Positions 3,477 through 64,000 of a DNA stretch of 64,000 nucleotides are shown one piece after another. Under the pieces are notes generated by a model. That model was not told the origin of the DNA and did not search any database. It saw nothing but the letters and a program-made list of their open reading frames with translations. Source of the DNA: Thermoplasmata archaeon (GTDB lineage Archaea > Thermoplasmatota > Thermoplasmata > Lutacidiplasmatales > UBA184); the NCBI GenBank assembly GCA_028864975.1, contig JAGWLG010000013.1, positions 2,618-66,617 on the forward strand. Reading direction: 5' to 3'. The translations under genes and the position numbers were made by a program. Within the stretch, counting starts at the first letter, position 1, and each line of letters starts with the position of its first letter.

Positions 3477-4014
3477 CGGTGCAGCCGATCACTGAGCTCG
3501 TCGGTGTGGGGACAGGACGTCCCGCGAGACCGGCGTCCAACGCCTCTCGCAGGAACCTGTGCTTCGCCTTCGAGGGCTCCTGCCAGCTGTCGTCGAGCTT
3601 CCCCTGGAAGATGAGCCGGCGGTCCTTGTCGAAGAGTAACGGATGGGGGGTGACGAGGGCCCCATACGCCCGGGCCACGCTCTGGTCCTCGTCCCGCACG
3701 TAGGGGAACGGATAGCCCTTGGCCCGAGCGCGCTCGATCATCCTGTCCATCCGGTCGTCAGGGTAGTTGACCGTCTCGTTCGGGTTGATCATGATCGTCC
3801 CGAGCCCCTTCACGGCGTAGTCGCGGACGACCTCGACGATGCGTCCCTCCCAAGCCTGGGCGTAGGGGCAGTGGTTGCAGGAGAAGACGACCAGGAGCAG
3901 CCGAGATCGGTCGAAGTCCCGGAGTCCCCATTTCTTGCCGTCGGTCCCCGGCAGGTCGCGGAACGTCGGTGCGTGGTCCCCGACGTTGAGCTTGAAAGCG
4001 TCGAGCTCGGCCAT
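3463..4014 (-). CDS. Thioredoxin-fold thiol-disulfide oxidoreductase (AhpC/TSA-redoxin-like)
   Basis: 183 aa with the CxxC-type active site FSCNHCPYA in a redoxin-like context (LLLVVFSCNHCPY...GYPFPYVRDEDQSVARAYGALVTPH). Its end overlaps the nop5 end by 14 nt (convergent genes). Confidence 0.8.
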   Translation of the reverse strand: MAELDAFKLNVGDHAPTFRDLPGTDGKKWGLRDFDRSRLLLVVFSCNHCPYAQAWEGRIVEVVRDYAVKGLGTIMINPNETVNYPDDRMDRMIERARAKGYPFPYVRDEDQSVARAYGALVTPHPLLFDKDRRLIFQGKLDDSWQEPSKAKHRFLREALDAGLAGRPVPTPTSSVIGCTVKWK

Positions 4015-59844: not shown

Positions 59845-60564
59845 TCAGGCGGGCCCCAGGTCGACCACGTTCACCGTCACCTCGTAGCCCGCGACGGAGA
59901 TGTTCTGCGAGCTCAAGATGAAAGAGATCACGTAGAACCCGGCGAACATGGTCCCGGTCGCCGTGCAGCTGCTGGAGTCGTTCAGCAGGTCGCACCAGAG
60001 CCCCGTCGGACCGAGCTGGGTGGAGTTCGTGAGGTCGGTGCTGCAACTCATCTCGGAGGAGGGACAGGCGGGGGAGGTCTCGAGCGTCACGCTGACCCGG
60101 GAGGACGTGCCGGCCTTCCCCGGCACGGTGAGCCCATCCTGCCAGATGACGCAGTGTCCCGTCCCGCAGAGCGTGTCACCGGTCCAGATCCGGTGACAGG
60201 AGATCGCTCCGGCGAGGCAATAGTTCGGAGGGGGCGGGGGGGAGTAGGTGAAGCGCGCGACGGTGCCCGCCACCACCAGGAGGGCCAGCACCAAGAGCAC
60301 CCAGAAGAGGGGGCTCCTACGCCAGGCACCCCGATGGAAGAGGGCGTCGAAGGGGCTCGGGGCGTACCTCGGGAGCACCGACGGGCCGTTGCTGACCACC
60401 CAGTGCGTTGTCCGAGGGGGGCGTGGTGGGTCCTCGGTGGGGGGCTCCTCCAGCGTGGAAACGAGGCGCGTGGGCGGAGGGCCCAGGGACGCTCCACAAG
60501 CGCGGCAGACCCCCTCCTCCCCGAAGTGGACCTGGCCGCACCGGGGGCAGACGCGCGTGGTCAA
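59845..60564 (-). CDS. Zinc-ribbon / single-TM / Cys-rich ectodomain protein
   Basis: It has a TTG start. The N-terminus is VCPRCGQVHFGEEGVCRACGASLG, the TM is LFWVLLVLALLVVAGTVA, and a Cys-rich extracellular domain follows. The architecture is the same as 47617..48189. Confidence 0.7.
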   Translation of the reverse strand: MTTRVCPRCGQVHFGEEGVCRACGASLGPPPTRLVSTLEEPPTEDPPRPPRTTHWVVSNGPSVLPRYAPSPFDALFHRGAWRRSPLFWVLLVLALLVVAGTVARFTYSPPPPPNYCLAGAISCHRIWTGDTLCGTGHCVIWQDGLTVPGKAGTSSRVSVTLETSPACPSSEMSCSTDLTNSTQLGPTGLWCDLLNDSSSCTATGTMFAGFYVISFILSSQNISVAGYEVTVNVVDLGPA

Positions 60565-60683
60565 CGCCCGCTTTGAGCGGGCCTCGACCTGATAGAGCTG
60601 CCGCCCGGCGAGAGCGGTGGCCGGCGACCGCCGGACCGCGAAGGGCGAGTACTGCTCCTGGCCCGGAGACTACAGTAGCCGGA

Positions 60684-60920
60684 CTACTCCCAGCGAACGT
60701 CCCTCGGCTGCGCCGCGTTCGCTGCCACCGCTCCAATGGTGGAGGCGGCGATCCCGACGAGCGCCAGATCGAGGAGAAGCCCTCCGACGTCGTCGCCGGA
60801 CCTCCGTCTGGGCCGTCGGGGAGGGGGTGGTGGGGTGTCCGGGATGACCACCTGAGCTTCGCGAAGCACGCCTGGGCCCGCGGCGGTCACGGCGTGGATT
60901 CGCCCGGTGATCCTCTCCAC
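60684..60920 (-). CDS. Small hypothetical protein with C-terminal hydrophobic segment (doubtful)
   Basis: The GTG at 60920 lies inside track ORF 60684..61037. The first about 39 codons of the track ORF read through the left-end hairpin of the adjacent IS, so they are unlikely to be native. Confidence 0.3.
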   Translation of the reverse strand: MERITGRIHAVTAAGPGVLREAQVVIPDTPPPPPRRPRRRSGDDVGGLLLDLALVGIAASTIGAVAANAAQPRDVRWE

Positions 60921-60963
60921 CGTACCTCTACGACAGATGGGGGGATCGGGGGGAGGAGCAGAG

Positions 60964-60983
60964 CCCCCGTTTTCAAACGGGGG
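60964..60983 (+). repeat. Left-end subterminal palindrome
   Basis: The sequence is cccccgttttcaaacggggg, with stem CCCCCG/CGGGGG plus inner TTT/AAA pairs. Confidence 0.8.
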
Positions 60984-61136
60984 GTACGACCTCCCCCCGA
61001 CCCGTCCAGGGACCACCTTCGGTCCAGAGCTCGACACGGGAGCACCTTACAGGTCACGCCGTACCACGGCGACGTTATGCCCGCTGGCCGCCCATGAGCG
61101 CCCGGGAGACGCTGCCCGTCCGCTCTCCTCCGCCCC

Positions 61137-62366
61137 ATGCTGACCGCCGTGAAGTTCCGCCTCTATCCTTTCCCGGACCAGGCGCGGGAGCTCGACCGTC
61201 AGCTCTCCGAACTGAACTCCCTCTGGAACCACGCCCTCGAAGAGCGGTGCGCTGCGTGGAAGAAGGAGAGGCGGTCCCTCACCTTCGTCCAGCAGTGTCA
61301 GGAGCTGACCCGGTGGCGGAACTTCGACCGGGAGGGTCTCGGGAGGGTGAACGCCCAGGTCGCGCAGGAGTGCCTGGCCCGCCTGAACGACGCGTTCCAG
61401 CACTTCTTCCGCAGGGTCAAGAGCGGGGAGGCTCCCGGGTTCCCTCGCTTCAATCGGGAGACCACGTCGCTGACCTATCCCCAGGCCTACGACTCCGTGA
61501 GGCTCGTCCCTGGGAGGAACGGGACGCGAAGGCTCTCCCTGTCCAGGGTGGGGGACCTTCCGATCGAGGTCCACCGGGAGCTTCCCGCGGGCCGTACGAA
61601 GACCTGCACGGTCGAGCGGGAGGGAGACCGATGGTATGCGGTCCTGATCGTAGAGATGGCGGACCCGGTCCCTCCCCCCGACCTTCCTCCCCGCCATCCC
61701 TTGGGCGTGGACCTGGGACTCTCTCGCCTCGCCACGCTGTCGACCGGGGAGGCGGTCGAGGCCCCGAGGTTCCTCCGACGCTCGGAGGTCCAGCTGAAGC
61801 GCCAGCAGCGGAGGCTCTCGAGGAAGCGGAGGGGCTCCCACAACTGGCGGAAGCAGAAGGCGAGGGTCCAGCGGTGCCACGCGAGGGTCCGGGACCAGCG
61901 GCGCGATCTGGCGCACCAGCTCACGTCGACCTGGGCGCGAGAGCACGACCTCATCGCCTTCGAGGACCTGGACGTGAGGTCGCACCTCATGGGCCCCTTC
62001 TCCAAGTCCACCGCCGACGCGGGTTGGGGGATGCTGCGTCGGTTCGCCGAGTACAAGGAAGCGCGCCGGTCGGGCCGGTACGTCGAGGTGCCGTCGAAGG
62101 GGACGACCCAGAGCTGCTCGGCGTGCGCACGGCCGCATGACCCGCCCCTGACGCTCCGGGACCGCACGTACGAGTGCCCGTGCGGTCTGCGGCTCGACCG
62201 AGATGTGAACGCGGCGAGGAACGTGCTCGCCCGCGCCCTCGCCATCGTAGGGGGGGATACCCCCGAAGTGACGCCGGTGGAGATCGGACCTCCGGTGGCC
62301 CGCAAGGGCCGCCGCGTCCGGTCCATGAAGCAGGAACCGCCCTCGGCCGTGGGTGCGAGCACCTGA
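61137..62366 (+). CDS. tnpB: TnpB RNA-guided endonuclease (IS200/IS605 OrfB), catalytic triad intact
   Basis: 409 aa. The N-terminus is MLTAVKFRLYP. RuvC-I is PLGVDLGLSRLA, RuvC-II is LIAFEDLDV, the zinc finger is CSACA...CPCG, and RuvC-III is LDRDVNAARNVL. Confidence 0.95.
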   Translation: MLTAVKFRLYPFPDQARELDRQLSELNSLWNHALEERCAAWKKERRSLTFVQQCQELTRWRNFDREGLGRVNAQVAQECLARLNDAFQHFFRRVKSGEAPGFPRFNRETTSLTYPQAYDSVRLVPGRNGTRRLSLSRVGDLPIEVHRELPAGRTKTCTVEREGDRWYAVLIVEMADPVPPPDLPPRHPLGVDLGLSRLATLSTGEAVEAPRFLRRSEVQLKRQQRRLSRKRRGSHNWRKQKARVQRCHARVRDQRRDLAHQLTSTWAREHDLIAFEDLDVRSHLMGPFSKSTADAGWGMLRRFAEYKEARRSGRYVEVPSKGTTQSCSACARPHDPPLTLRDRTYECPCGLRLDRDVNAARNVLARALAIVGGDTPEVTPVEIGPPVARKGRRVRSMKQEPPSAVGAST

Positions 62367-62380
62367 CGGCCGGGAGGAAG

Positions 62381-62400
62381 CCCCCCGTTTCAACGGGGGG
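62381..62400 (+). repeat. Right-end subterminal palindrome
   Basis: The sequence is ccccccgtttcaacgggggg, with a 7-bp stem and a TTTCAA loop. It is closely related to the left-end palindrome. Confidence 0.8.
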
Positions 62401-62406
62401 AGGATA

Positions 62407-62610
62407 TCACTCGCTCGAGATCTCCAGCCGTTCGCGTTCGATCTCTCGGCGAACGAGCTTGTCGTTCTTGAAGTGTTCCGTTACTCGCTCGCGAACGATG
62501 GCCTTCACGCCGGCCTCGCGCAGGGTCTTAGGGTCGAGCATCAGCCCCCGGCGCCCGCTCGGTAGAGTGACGAGCTCGACCGACGACTCTTGAGCGGATC
62601 CCTCAGCCAC
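62407..62610 (-). CDS. Small AbrB/SpoVT-like protein (putative)
   Basis: 67 aa. VELVTLPSGRRGLMLDPKTLREAGV resembles the looped-hinge-helix swapped-hairpin motif. It overlaps the upstream 400-aa gene by 8 nt, and its stop codon abuts the IS right end. Confidence 0.5.
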   Translation of the reverse strand: MAEGSAQESSVELVTLPSGRRGLMLDPKTLREAGVKAIVRERVTEHFKNDKLVRREIERERLEISSE

Positions 62611-63805
62611 GCGTCTTCACCTCGATGGCAATGTTCCGGTTGTAGGAGGTCGTGATCACACCAGGGTCGTGAGGGTCCATGTCCTGGACAAGCCGTTCAT
62701 CGAAGCTGCGGTGGAGGGTGAAGCCTTTCGCACCCGGGGGCGGAAGGATCGGGCTCCGGAGCGGAGCTCGGTCCAGCGCTCCAAGGATCGATCGGAGGGC
62801 ACGGAGGCCCTCGACCGCCAGCTCGGCCTCGACAGGGAAGGCCAGGTCGGGCTTCTCGACCAAGAACGCCTCGGTCGTCTTCCTGCCGGAGTGGGGAAGC
62901 TGCTCTGGCTCCACCGTGACAGGAGCAGGGGAGGTTGCGAGCGGAAGAGGCGCGATCGTCCTCTCGCCGGTAACGGTCTGCCAGAGCTCCTTGAAGGCCG
63001 CCGTGGCTCTTGGATCCGCATCTCGCAGCCAGCTCTCGGTGGCATGCTCTTGGAAGCGGGTGAGCCAAGACAGCACGGTCACTCGAGAACCCTCGTCAAG
63101 GCCGAAATGACCGAGCAGAAGCTGAAGCTGTCCTGACACAACCGATGCCCCGGCCAAGAAGAGCAAGAGGGAGGTCCAATCCTCAGGACCGGGAATCTCG
63201 AGTTCGCCCGGCGGAACGCGGAGAGAGGTCAGAACACTGTTCGTTGTGGGCGTACCGCTACGCCCCAGCGTGGACTCGATGGACGCTCGGATCCGCCGGT
63301 CCCGGCTGGCAAGTCCCCAAGTCTCGTCGAGGAGCAGCTGGAGCTCGTTGCGCAGGTCTGACCTGTCGGGCTCGAAGATGTGAGGCAGAACCTCCAGATC
63401 CACGGGGACGTCGGGCTTGGAAAGGCGGAGAAAGAGGCGCTCCTCCCTCGGAGCCACGCCGGCCTCTCGGAGCAGGTCGTGAACCCTCGCTCTGGCCCTG
63501 TCCTGATCACCTTCGTCGAGAGAGAATCCCAACTTCTCCATCTGCTCCAGTACCTCGCCCCGGGTGAGTCCGCACGCCTGCGCGACGGCCCCGATGGTGT
63601 AGTGTCCAAGCTCGAACCGCTTCTCCAGAGCGCGAAGCAGCGCCACGTGCTGGGAGGTCTCCACCTTGTCCTTCAAGGCGTCGAAGACGACCTCGGAGAC
63701 CGATGCGACCTTCTCGCGGGCCGCAAGCTCCTTCGCCTTCTCCCACACCTTCGTGTCGACCACGAAGAGCGTGGTGCGCGCCTCCTTGGGCGCTCGCTTC
63801 CTCAT
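62603..63805 (-). CDS. Uncharacterised protein: N-terminal RHH-like and UPF0175-like antitoxin-type modules fused to an approximately 270-aa unknown domain
   Basis: The ATG at 63805 is used (a GTG is at 63808). The RHH-like module is TTLFVVDTKVWEKAKELAAREKVASVSEVVFDAL and the UPF0175-like module is GHYTIGAVAQACGLTRGEVLEQMEKLGFSL. I did not recognise the remainder. A strongly AT-rich promoter region lies upstream (63810-63890). Confidence 0.7.
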   Translation of the reverse strand: MRKRAPKEARTTLFVVDTKVWEKAKELAAREKVASVSEVVFDALKDKVETSQHVALLRALEKRFELGHYTIGAVAQACGLTRGEVLEQMEKLGFSLDEGDQDRARARVHDLLREAGVAPREERLFLRLSKPDVPVDLEVLPHIFEPDRSDLRNELQLLLDETWGLASRDRRIRASIESTLGRSGTPTTNSVLTSLRVPPGELEIPGPEDWTSLLLFLAGASVVSGQLQLLLGHFGLDEGSRVTVLSWLTRFQEHATESWLRDADPRATAAFKELWQTVTGERTIAPLPLATSPAPVTVEPEQLPHSGRKTTEAFLVEKPDLAFPVEAELAVEGLRALRSILGALDRAPLRSPILPPPGAKGFTLHRSFDERLVQDMDPHDPGVITTSYNRNIAIEVKTRG

Positions 63806-64000
63806 CACTATGTAAGAACAGGAACAAGCATAAGTAGCCTATGATTCATTTTACTGCAACGTTGCCATGTTTAAATAATGGCTCACCCTGGCAGTTCCGT
63901 GCGAATGACGACAGTTGGAGGTCCAGGGGAAGGTGGCTTCCAGTGACCCTCCGCGGACTCCTGCAAGACCCGAGCCCGTAGTCCGGCTTCCCCGGCCCCC

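Follow-up and report, generated by a model that had tools for sequence, protein, structure and literature searches.

Near one end of a 64,000-nt stretch of the genome of a Thermoplasmata archaeon (GenBank assembly GCA_028864975.1, contig JAGWLG010000013.1, positions 2,618 to 66,617; hereafter the window, whose numbering we use), a tnpB gene lies between two near-identical hairpins, and a small convergent gene ends beside the second of them. What kind of element is this, where does it begin and end, and what did its insertion do to the neighboring gene? We conclude, with a probability of about 0.9, that positions 60932-62410 (1,479 bp) are a non-autonomous element of the IS200/IS605 family, of the "IS1341 type" that carries only tnpB. 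As single-gene mobile elements go, it is of a familiar and ordinary kind, in which a hairpin end stands on either side of tnpB and a guide-RNA scaffold is also present. Its sole unusual trait is its placement, exactly on the stop codon of the neighboring gene, for which it has substituted a stop of its own. An initial annotation, made from the sequence alone, had proposed a tnpB-only element with an omega-RNA scaffold at the 3' end of tnpB and the right end, and both the boundary that is conserved in 17 relatives and the covariation within the scaffold bear this out. Its view of the hairpins as the ends needs adjusting, as they are subterminal end structures: the right end is at 62410, 10 nt past the hairpin, and the left end is likely at 60932.

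Boundaries, nuclease, and predicted guide RNA

To define the ends of the element, we compared about 30 related copies. The alignment of the right end includes 17 copies from several genomes; these are near-invariant through …GGAAGCC-[hairpin]-AGGAT(G/A)TCAC, and their flanks differ immediately beyond it. By this comparison, the right end is at 62410|62411 (…GGAGGATATCAC|), 10 nt 3' of the foot of the right hairpin. This distance is 10 nt in all 14 of the right ends that we measured and in the 17 aligned copies. The 10-nt tail (62401-62410 on the + strand, AGGATATCAC), as delimited by conservation across the 17 copies, ends in the right cleavage tetranucleotide, TCAC.

The two hairpins are as first described. 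The left subterminal hairpin (IP_L; 60964-60983, + strand, CCCCCGTTTTCAAACGGGGG) and the right one (IP_R; 62381-62400, + strand, CCCCCCGTTTCAACGGGGGG) each have an 8-bp G/C-rich stem and a TTCA loop, and since this loop is on the + strand in both, they have the same orientation. In RNA, IP_R would carry a UUCA loop and form the last stem-loop of the scaffold; four of its eight pairs covary in relatives. IP_L sits within a longer imperfect palindrome (60938-61008) with a DNA folding energy of -33.5 kcal/mol (z = -4.5). Homologous hairpins are present in all of the relatives that we examined, and the boundaries of those copies include the hairpins. When we searched for the hairpin pattern (CCCCCGTTTN{0,4}AACGGGGG), shuffles of the window gave an expectation of 0 matches, and the whole 3.61-Mb genome (89.6% complete) contains just two sites, IP_L and IP_R, so the pattern is not a genomic repeat. 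The ends of the element (GACAGATG… and …GGATATCAC) are not inverted copies of each other. Terminal inverted repeats are thus absent, as is any target-site duplication in the flanks (CTAC and TCGC).

The gene between the hairpins (61137-62366, + strand) is an uninterrupted open reading frame (ORF) for a predicted RNA-guided RuvC nuclease of 409 amino acids. The protein matches HTH_OrfB_IS605, OrfB_IS605, and Cas12f1-like_TNB from Pfam above their cutoffs; it scores 255 bits against guided_TnpB from NCBIfam (NF040570; cutoff of 100); and residues 6-383 align to structures of ISDra2 TnpB (8BF8 and 8EXA; E = 4.7e-47). The initial annotation had picked out the catalytic residues D (GVDLG), E (FEDL), and D (RDVNAA), and these are indeed an intact triad, at D192, E276, and D356. 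The zinc finger is also intact (CxxC at 327 and CxC at 347).

The absence of tnpA, which had been reported for the window, extends to the whole genome: we found no match to the Y1 transposase domain (PF01797) anywhere in this 89.6%-complete assembly, and control genomes were positive. Because the genome does not seem to encode a Y1 transposase, this copy is non-autonomous and currently immobile. A related genome with multiple copies of the element, YP1.bin63, does contain a Y1 transposase, but none of the ends of this element family are within 1.5 kb of it.

We ran RNA folding and a covariance-model search for the scaffold that the initial annotation had placed at roughly 62200-62400. A conserved, covarying structure is present at the 3' end of tnpB and the right end, and its span is 62274-62410 (+ strand). 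This predicted omega-RNA (also known as reRNA or sotRNA) scaffold is 137 nt long, overlaps the last 31 codons of tnpB as well as the right end, and has five helices. Helix 1 pairs 62274-78 with 62330-34; helix 2 pairs 62282-62301 with 62306-23; helix 3 pairs 62340-41 with 62376-77; helix 4 pairs 62343-54 with 62361-72 and contains the stop codon of tnpB (62364-66); and helix 5 pairs 62381-88 with 62393-62400 and is followed by the 10-nt tail. RNAalifold, run on the alignment of relatives, predicted 44 pairs, 21 of them with compensatory changes. After trimming of the alignment, 94.9% of its cells are paired, both sides have changed in 15 pairs, and the covariation score is 0.263. None of 500 shuffles reached these values, and slid controls gave at most 6 pairs that had changed on both sides. 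We did not find evident excess conservation of synonymous sites over the scaffold in comparison with the window sequence (0.60 versus 0.55 at third positions), and we do not use this as evidence.

A covariance model built from the scaffold alignment (R1) scores 125 bits at the window scaffold. Of 81 genomes from the same taxonomic family, 20 contain the scaffold according to this model, a few of them in multiple copies. Rfam gave no match anywhere in the window at gathering thresholds. A broader search with a loose pattern (GGAAGC…GAGGATRTCA) across our collection gave at least 120 loci, of which 22 were kept after a filter for the hairpin. Among the matches listed, the module GGAAGC-hairpin-GAGGATGTCA is also found in haloarchaea, Micrarchaeota, Thaumarchaeota, and some Bacillota. 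These sequence comparisons suggest that the predicted RNA is an ordinary member of a widespread class of TnpB guide RNAs. The 3' module of the scaffold is word-for-word the same at several loci (L060, L084, L086, L091, L102, L147, and others), and the Bacillota among them include Lachnospiraceae, Ruminococcus, and Oceanobacillus.

The closest TnpB proteins are 61-71% identical and come from metagenome-assembled genomes of Thermoplasmata and from metagenomes. YP1.bin63 contains at least six copies of the element family. The genome of the window contains one other relative of this TnpB (51% identity, on contig C104) and more distant TnpB genes, and the only relatives on viral contigs are at 34% identity. 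We also noticed that the contigs with the nearest TnpBs (L045, L046, and L191; 68-71% identity) carry short unannotated genes along with a DNA polymerase B of the protein-primed type, DUF932, or RecT; such contigs resemble viral or plasmid DNA of Thermoplasmata.

The left end and its predicted target tetranucleotide

The non-coding left end (60932-61136, + strand), which we aligned with the left ends of relatives, consists of a 28-nt linker, the tetranucleotide AGAG (60960-60963) directly 5' of the foot of IP_L, the hairpin itself, and about 150 nt that lead to the start of tnpB. At the other end of the element, GAAG (62377-62380) is directly 5' of IP_R. In IS608 of Helicobacter pylori, the four nucleotides that are 5' of each hairpin foot set the cleavage tetranucleotides; the right one, TCAA, lies 3' of the IP_R foot by 10 nt, and the left one, TTAC, goes with the guide AAAG and is cleaved 19 nt from the foot (PMC3201880).

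A similar rule holds for the relatives of the window's element. Their left ends fall into three classes: TGAC|GATGCCGGCGAGCGCAAG-[hairpin], which is the commonest; (T)CTAC|AAATGA.GGCCGAGAGGG-[hairpin]; and TTAT|…, with one copy. In each class, the first two bases of the flank are the reverse complement of the first two bases of the guide, the third base is A, and the fourth is the complement of the fourth base of the guide. Thus CAAG goes with TGAC, AGGG with CTAC, and AAGA with TTAT, and at the right end GAAG specifies TCAC. Where the hairpin could be cleanly called, the rule holds for left ends of all three classes (6 TGAC, 3 CTAC, and 1 TTAT) and for 13 of 14 right ends, including that of the window.

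By this rule, the left guide AGAG of the window predicts CTAC. CTAC is present at 60928-60931 (+ strand), so we place the left boundary just after it, at 60931|60932. This assignment, which draws on sequence comparison, is probably correct. CTAC itself would then be flanking DNA rather than part of the element and would serve as the target and left cleavage tetranucleotide; by precedent from IS200/IS605 elements, it may also be the transposon-associated motif (TAM) that TnpB recognizes. If the flanks are joined without the element, the predicted junction of the empty site is …CCTCTAC|TCGCTCGAG…, that is, CTAC+TCGCTCGAGATCTCCA.

In a tree of TnpB proteins, the window copy is outside the clade of TGAC-type copies. 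A CTAC-type copy from YP1.bin63 (L016) nests within that clade, so the tree cannot decide the TAM; the placement of L016 suggests that left ends have been exchanged between lineages in one genome. Within the window's linker, positions 60936-60954 are a G-rich tandem duplication (GATGGGGGG/ATCGGGGGG), which makes up most of the 12-15 nt by which this left end exceeds those of its relatives.

The left hairpin is also read through by an ORF at 60684-61037, whose 5' part had been suggested to derive from the insertion sequence. This suggestion is moot, as we regard the ORF as not coding. Its GC content by codon position (0.73/0.63/0.74, or 0.76/0.76/0.60 outside of the element) is unlike that of the real genes nearby, it has no family match, and the gene caller starts it at 60920, which is outside the element.

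Insertion at stop codons

The convergent neighbor is an ORF of 67 amino acids (62407-62610, - strand). Its GC content by codon position (0.71/0.43/0.76) is like that of a coding sequence, and it shares 8 nt with the upstream gene, of 401 amino acids. Because the right end of the element is at 62410, the stop of this ORF lies inside the element: its TGA (62407-62409) and the third base of its last codon, for Glu (62410), are element DNA. The stop codon, which the initial annotation had put 6 nt from the hairpin, is thus not outside the element. Joining the flanks without the element gives …ISSE-TAG and leaves the protein unchanged. Since the terminal TCAC of the element reads as G-TGA on the other strand, the insertion swapped the neighbor's TAG for TGA without altering its product.

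The right end at 62410 also means that the guide would start at 62411. We infer from the mechanism of other TnpBs that the guide is a 3' extension of the scaffold, and the predicted guide region (62411-62430, + strand, TCGCTCGAGATCTCCAGCCG) is flanking DNA that runs antisense to the final 6-7 codons of the 67-aa ORF. The guide had been expected to be complementary to the last codons of the neighbor; it would indeed read into the end of the ORF, but only from 62411 on. The initial 16 nt of the guide region occur at no other site in the genome. More generally, the guide is whatever DNA adjoins the right end, and these flanks differ in every relative.

Stop codons are a recurrent site of insertion for one type of relative. 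Four of the five CTAC-type copies have their right end on the TAG stop of a convergent gene, as compared to 0 of 17 TGAC-type copies (P = 7e-4, Fisher's exact test). Besides the window, where the overlap with the 67-aa ORF is at 62407-62410, the four include copies on the stops of genes for ribosomal protein eS17 (L016, 4271-4274), a ferredoxin (L227), and a cupin (L243, 2343-2346). These last three genes are supported by Pfam and have a coding GC pattern, and each reconstructs to TAG in the same frame. The fifth CTAC-type copy (L046) abuts the 5' end of a tRNA-Gln gene (3773-3846); the gene begins within the right end, on its final AC, so that the former upstream DNA has been displaced. Another copy, whose left end could not be typed, is on the stop of an ABC-2 permease gene (L192, 2878-2881). 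None of the 17 TGAC-type copies has a credible convergent gene that ends on the TGA of the element, with one ambiguous case (L223). At another locus (L045, 2290-2326), the terminus of the right end (AGGATGTCAC) occurs twice, 15 nt apart (GAGGATGTCAC-AACCTTCGCGGGAGC-AGGATGTCAC), which may have been left by a previous insertion there.

The simplest reading of the bias towards stop codons is purifying selection: CTAC at the complement of a G-TAG stop would be a harmless landing place because TCAC restores G-TGA. We tentatively propose that the CTAC-targeting branch exploits stop codons at the ends of convergent genes as sites where insertion is safe, which we consider to be a little short of an even bet. 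The tetranucleotides of IS608 are in the same register (TTAC gives G-TAA and TCAA gives T-TGA on the other strand), so this property may be general to this architecture of the ends. We did not find a prior description of the pattern in a literature search that was not exhaustive.

The same genome contains a second example. Model R1 identifies a solo scaffold, similar to the omega-RNA, on contig C104 (41184-41322, - strand; 1185-1323 of locus L171), with a score of 56 bits. As judged by eye, it closely matches the window scaffold from about 62330 to the end, and neither tnpB nor a left end is attached to it. Its terminal TCAC adjoins the 3' end of the essential gene for aEF-2, whose TGA stop is element DNA. 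The end of aEF-2 is at nearly the same place, within one codon, in all 13 of the related genomes shown: 12 end in …YYAG-stop or YYSG-stop, and in the remaining one a further Met precedes the stop codon. TAG is used by two of three genomes within the genus, where one relative has TGA, and by four of six within the family. The genomes of the same genus lack the remnant, and their aEF-2 genes end with TAG or TGA at the same codon. From these stops, the tetranucleotide before insertion was CTA[C/A], or TCAN if the ancestor had TGA, and cannot have been TGAC. The remnant is therefore compatible with a CTAC target but is no proof of it. On the other side of the remnant is an ORF with a nucleotidyltransferase-like motif, next to a gene that resembles a HEPN-type partner, as read from the translations only.

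As for the genes around the window's element, the 67-aa ORF had been called AbrB-like, but it has no match in Pfam or NCBIfam even at E = 10 and no homolog other than itself among 5.8 billion proteins. That label is thus unsupported, and we consider the ORF to be an orphan. None of the flanking genes (of 239 amino acids with a zinc ribbon, 67 amino acids, and 401 amino acids) has a counterpart in 25 related genomes, and the DNA around the element may be specific to the strain and was possibly acquired. Across 59845-63808 of the window, third-position GC is 0.76-0.78 in the 67-aa and 401-aa genes and 0.89-0.90 in tnpB and the 239-aa gene.

Alternative readings, proposed mechanism, and significance

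Several observations weigh against our account of this element. CTAC is 32 nt away from the hairpin foot, whereas the corresponding spacing in relatives is 17-20 nt, so the left end is atypical and possibly impaired. A chance occurrence of CTAC within about 40 nt is not rare (we estimate a probability of roughly 0.1). We found no second full copy in the same genome and no empty site for this insertion there, and the neighboring ORF and this TnpB turned up on no other contigs except those of identical assemblies, which also have the insertion. Nor is there an empty site in 25 related genomes, as these lack both the 401-aa and the 239-aa flanking genes. Given no empty site or second copy, and flanking genes that are missing from relatives, the left boundary rests on the pairing rule and on analogy; the aEF-2 remnant, when set against relatives, and the conserved flanks of related copies lend indirect support to insertion 3' of a fixed tetranucleotide. 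The predicted nuclease and guide activities of TnpB rest on homology. Finally, the Rfam family HgcC (RF00062) cuts both ways. At a relaxed threshold it aligns over the full length of its model to 62304-62423 and matches the hairpin and the GAGGAxxUCA tail (E = 7e-4), which speaks for our account, but its score of 24.5 bits is below the gathering score of 50, so the predicted RNA is not formally a member of HgcC.

MAFFT adds another such point, as it aligns CGAC|AGATGGGG… of the window with TGAC|GATGCCGG… and TGAC|AAAGTGG… of type-A relatives. The element would then be the same, but its left boundary would be at 60934|60935, with CGAC (60931-60934) as a target and TAM that vary from the TGAC that is usual in relatives and that is the conserved flank in at least 11 related copies. 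The neighboring protein would originally have ended in …ISSES-TAG and would have lost one residue upon insertion. We consider this boundary unlikely, though worth bearing in mind: AGAG predicts CT-A-C by the pairing rule and not CG-A-C, the tetranucleotide that preceded the solo remnant had to be CTAN or TCAN, complementary to a stop codon, and not similar to TGAC, the TnpB of the window falls outside the TGAC-type clade, and the four evaluable CTAC-type copies with a convergent neighbor share the geometry of a stop on a stop. A different concern is that the element at 60932-62410 might be a fossil, with tnpB and the scaffold neither expressed nor active and the hairpins functionless relics. 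The genome has one full copy, one decayed solo remnant, and no transposase, and the linker of the left end is atypically long, all of which would fit. However, the ORF is uninterrupted and has kept every catalytic and zinc-binding residue, base pairing in the scaffold is preserved, with a score of 125 bits under the family's covariance model, and both pairs of guide and cleavage tetranucleotides are intact, so decay to this extent is improbable. It is very unlikely that the system has been domesticated, so that the TnpB-RNA complex or an antisense guide transcript regulates the convergent operon of the 401-aa and 67-aa genes instead of maintaining the transposon. In favor of this reading, the guide region lies antisense to the final codons of the 67-aa ORF, and nuclease-dead repressors derived from TnpB have been reported. 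Here, however, the catalytic triad is intact, as are the two transposon ends; the guide, as for all copies in the family, is just the DNA that flanks the right end, and this flank differs for each relative; and the occupied site does not have the inferred TAM. We give almost no weight to the idea that the hairpins are unrelated to transposition and are, for instance, terminators or a genome-wide repeat that flank tnpB by chance. They are G/C-rich stem-loops at the ends of genes, as this would require; however, the genome has only the two sites, neither hairpin is followed by a run of T, and in all relatives homologous hairpins with compensatory changes are at a fixed distance from conserved boundaries.

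We also compared the tnpB-only element at 60932-62410 with characterized systems. ISDra2 TnpB from Deinococcus radiodurans (8BF8 and 8EXA) is alike in size, domain order, RuvC D-E-D triad, and zinc finger, and in drawing its scaffold from the 3' end of tnpB and the right end, with the adjacent flank as the guide. ISDra2 has its own Y1 transposase, and its target and TAM is TTGAT. The element in the window, unlike ISDra2, has no transposase, an inferred motif of CTAC, an archaeal host, and a different scaffold sequence. Like the window's element, IS608 has subterminal hairpins that are both on one strand, a right cleavage site at 10 nt from the foot on its 3' side, and the same pairing rule (AAAG with TTAC), but it differs in its left spacing (19 nt versus 32 nt), in its tetranucleotides (TTAC and TCAA), and in having tnpA. 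Among archaea, Gomes-Filho et al. described sense-overlapping transcripts (sotRNAs) at the 3' ends of IS1341-type tnpB genes, and HgcC RNAs share a UUCA tetraloop like that of the right end (PMC4615843). The window's element resembles these in having only tnpB, a structured RNA over the 3' end of tnpB, and a UUCA tetraloop in the right-end hairpin.

From the paradigms of IS608 and ISDra2, the element would have inserted as single-stranded DNA, 3' of CTAC, by the action of a Y1 transposase in trans. The target, CTAC, would be the complement of the G-TAG end of the convergent 67-aa ORF. The four nucleotides that are 5' of the hairpin feet (AGAG on the left and GAAG on the right) would specify the cleavage tetranucleotides CTAC and TCAC. 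The scaffold, from the last ~90 nt of tnpB and the right end, would be transcribed together with the guide. By analogy to ISDra2 and related TnpBs, the TnpB-RNA complex may then cut the emptied donor site, CTAC followed by TCGCTCGAGATCTCC…, which would maintain the element. The occupied site would be spared: there, TCAC replaces CTAC, which would protect the site from cleavage.

This work adds an annotated TnpB element from archaea, with defined ends, a scaffold that is supported by covariation, and a predicted CTAC motif. The element itself is not surprising, but it may be useful for annotating the genomes of Thermoplasmata, and, judging from its sequence, its TnpB is a candidate compact nuclease. 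Should the replacement of one stop codon by another prove general, it would account for the survival of such elements in genomes that are dense with genes, without harm to their hosts. It would also imply that some essential genes, here aEF-2, end on stop codons that derive from transposons, and annotators should expect the ends of genes to overlap these elements by 4 nt.

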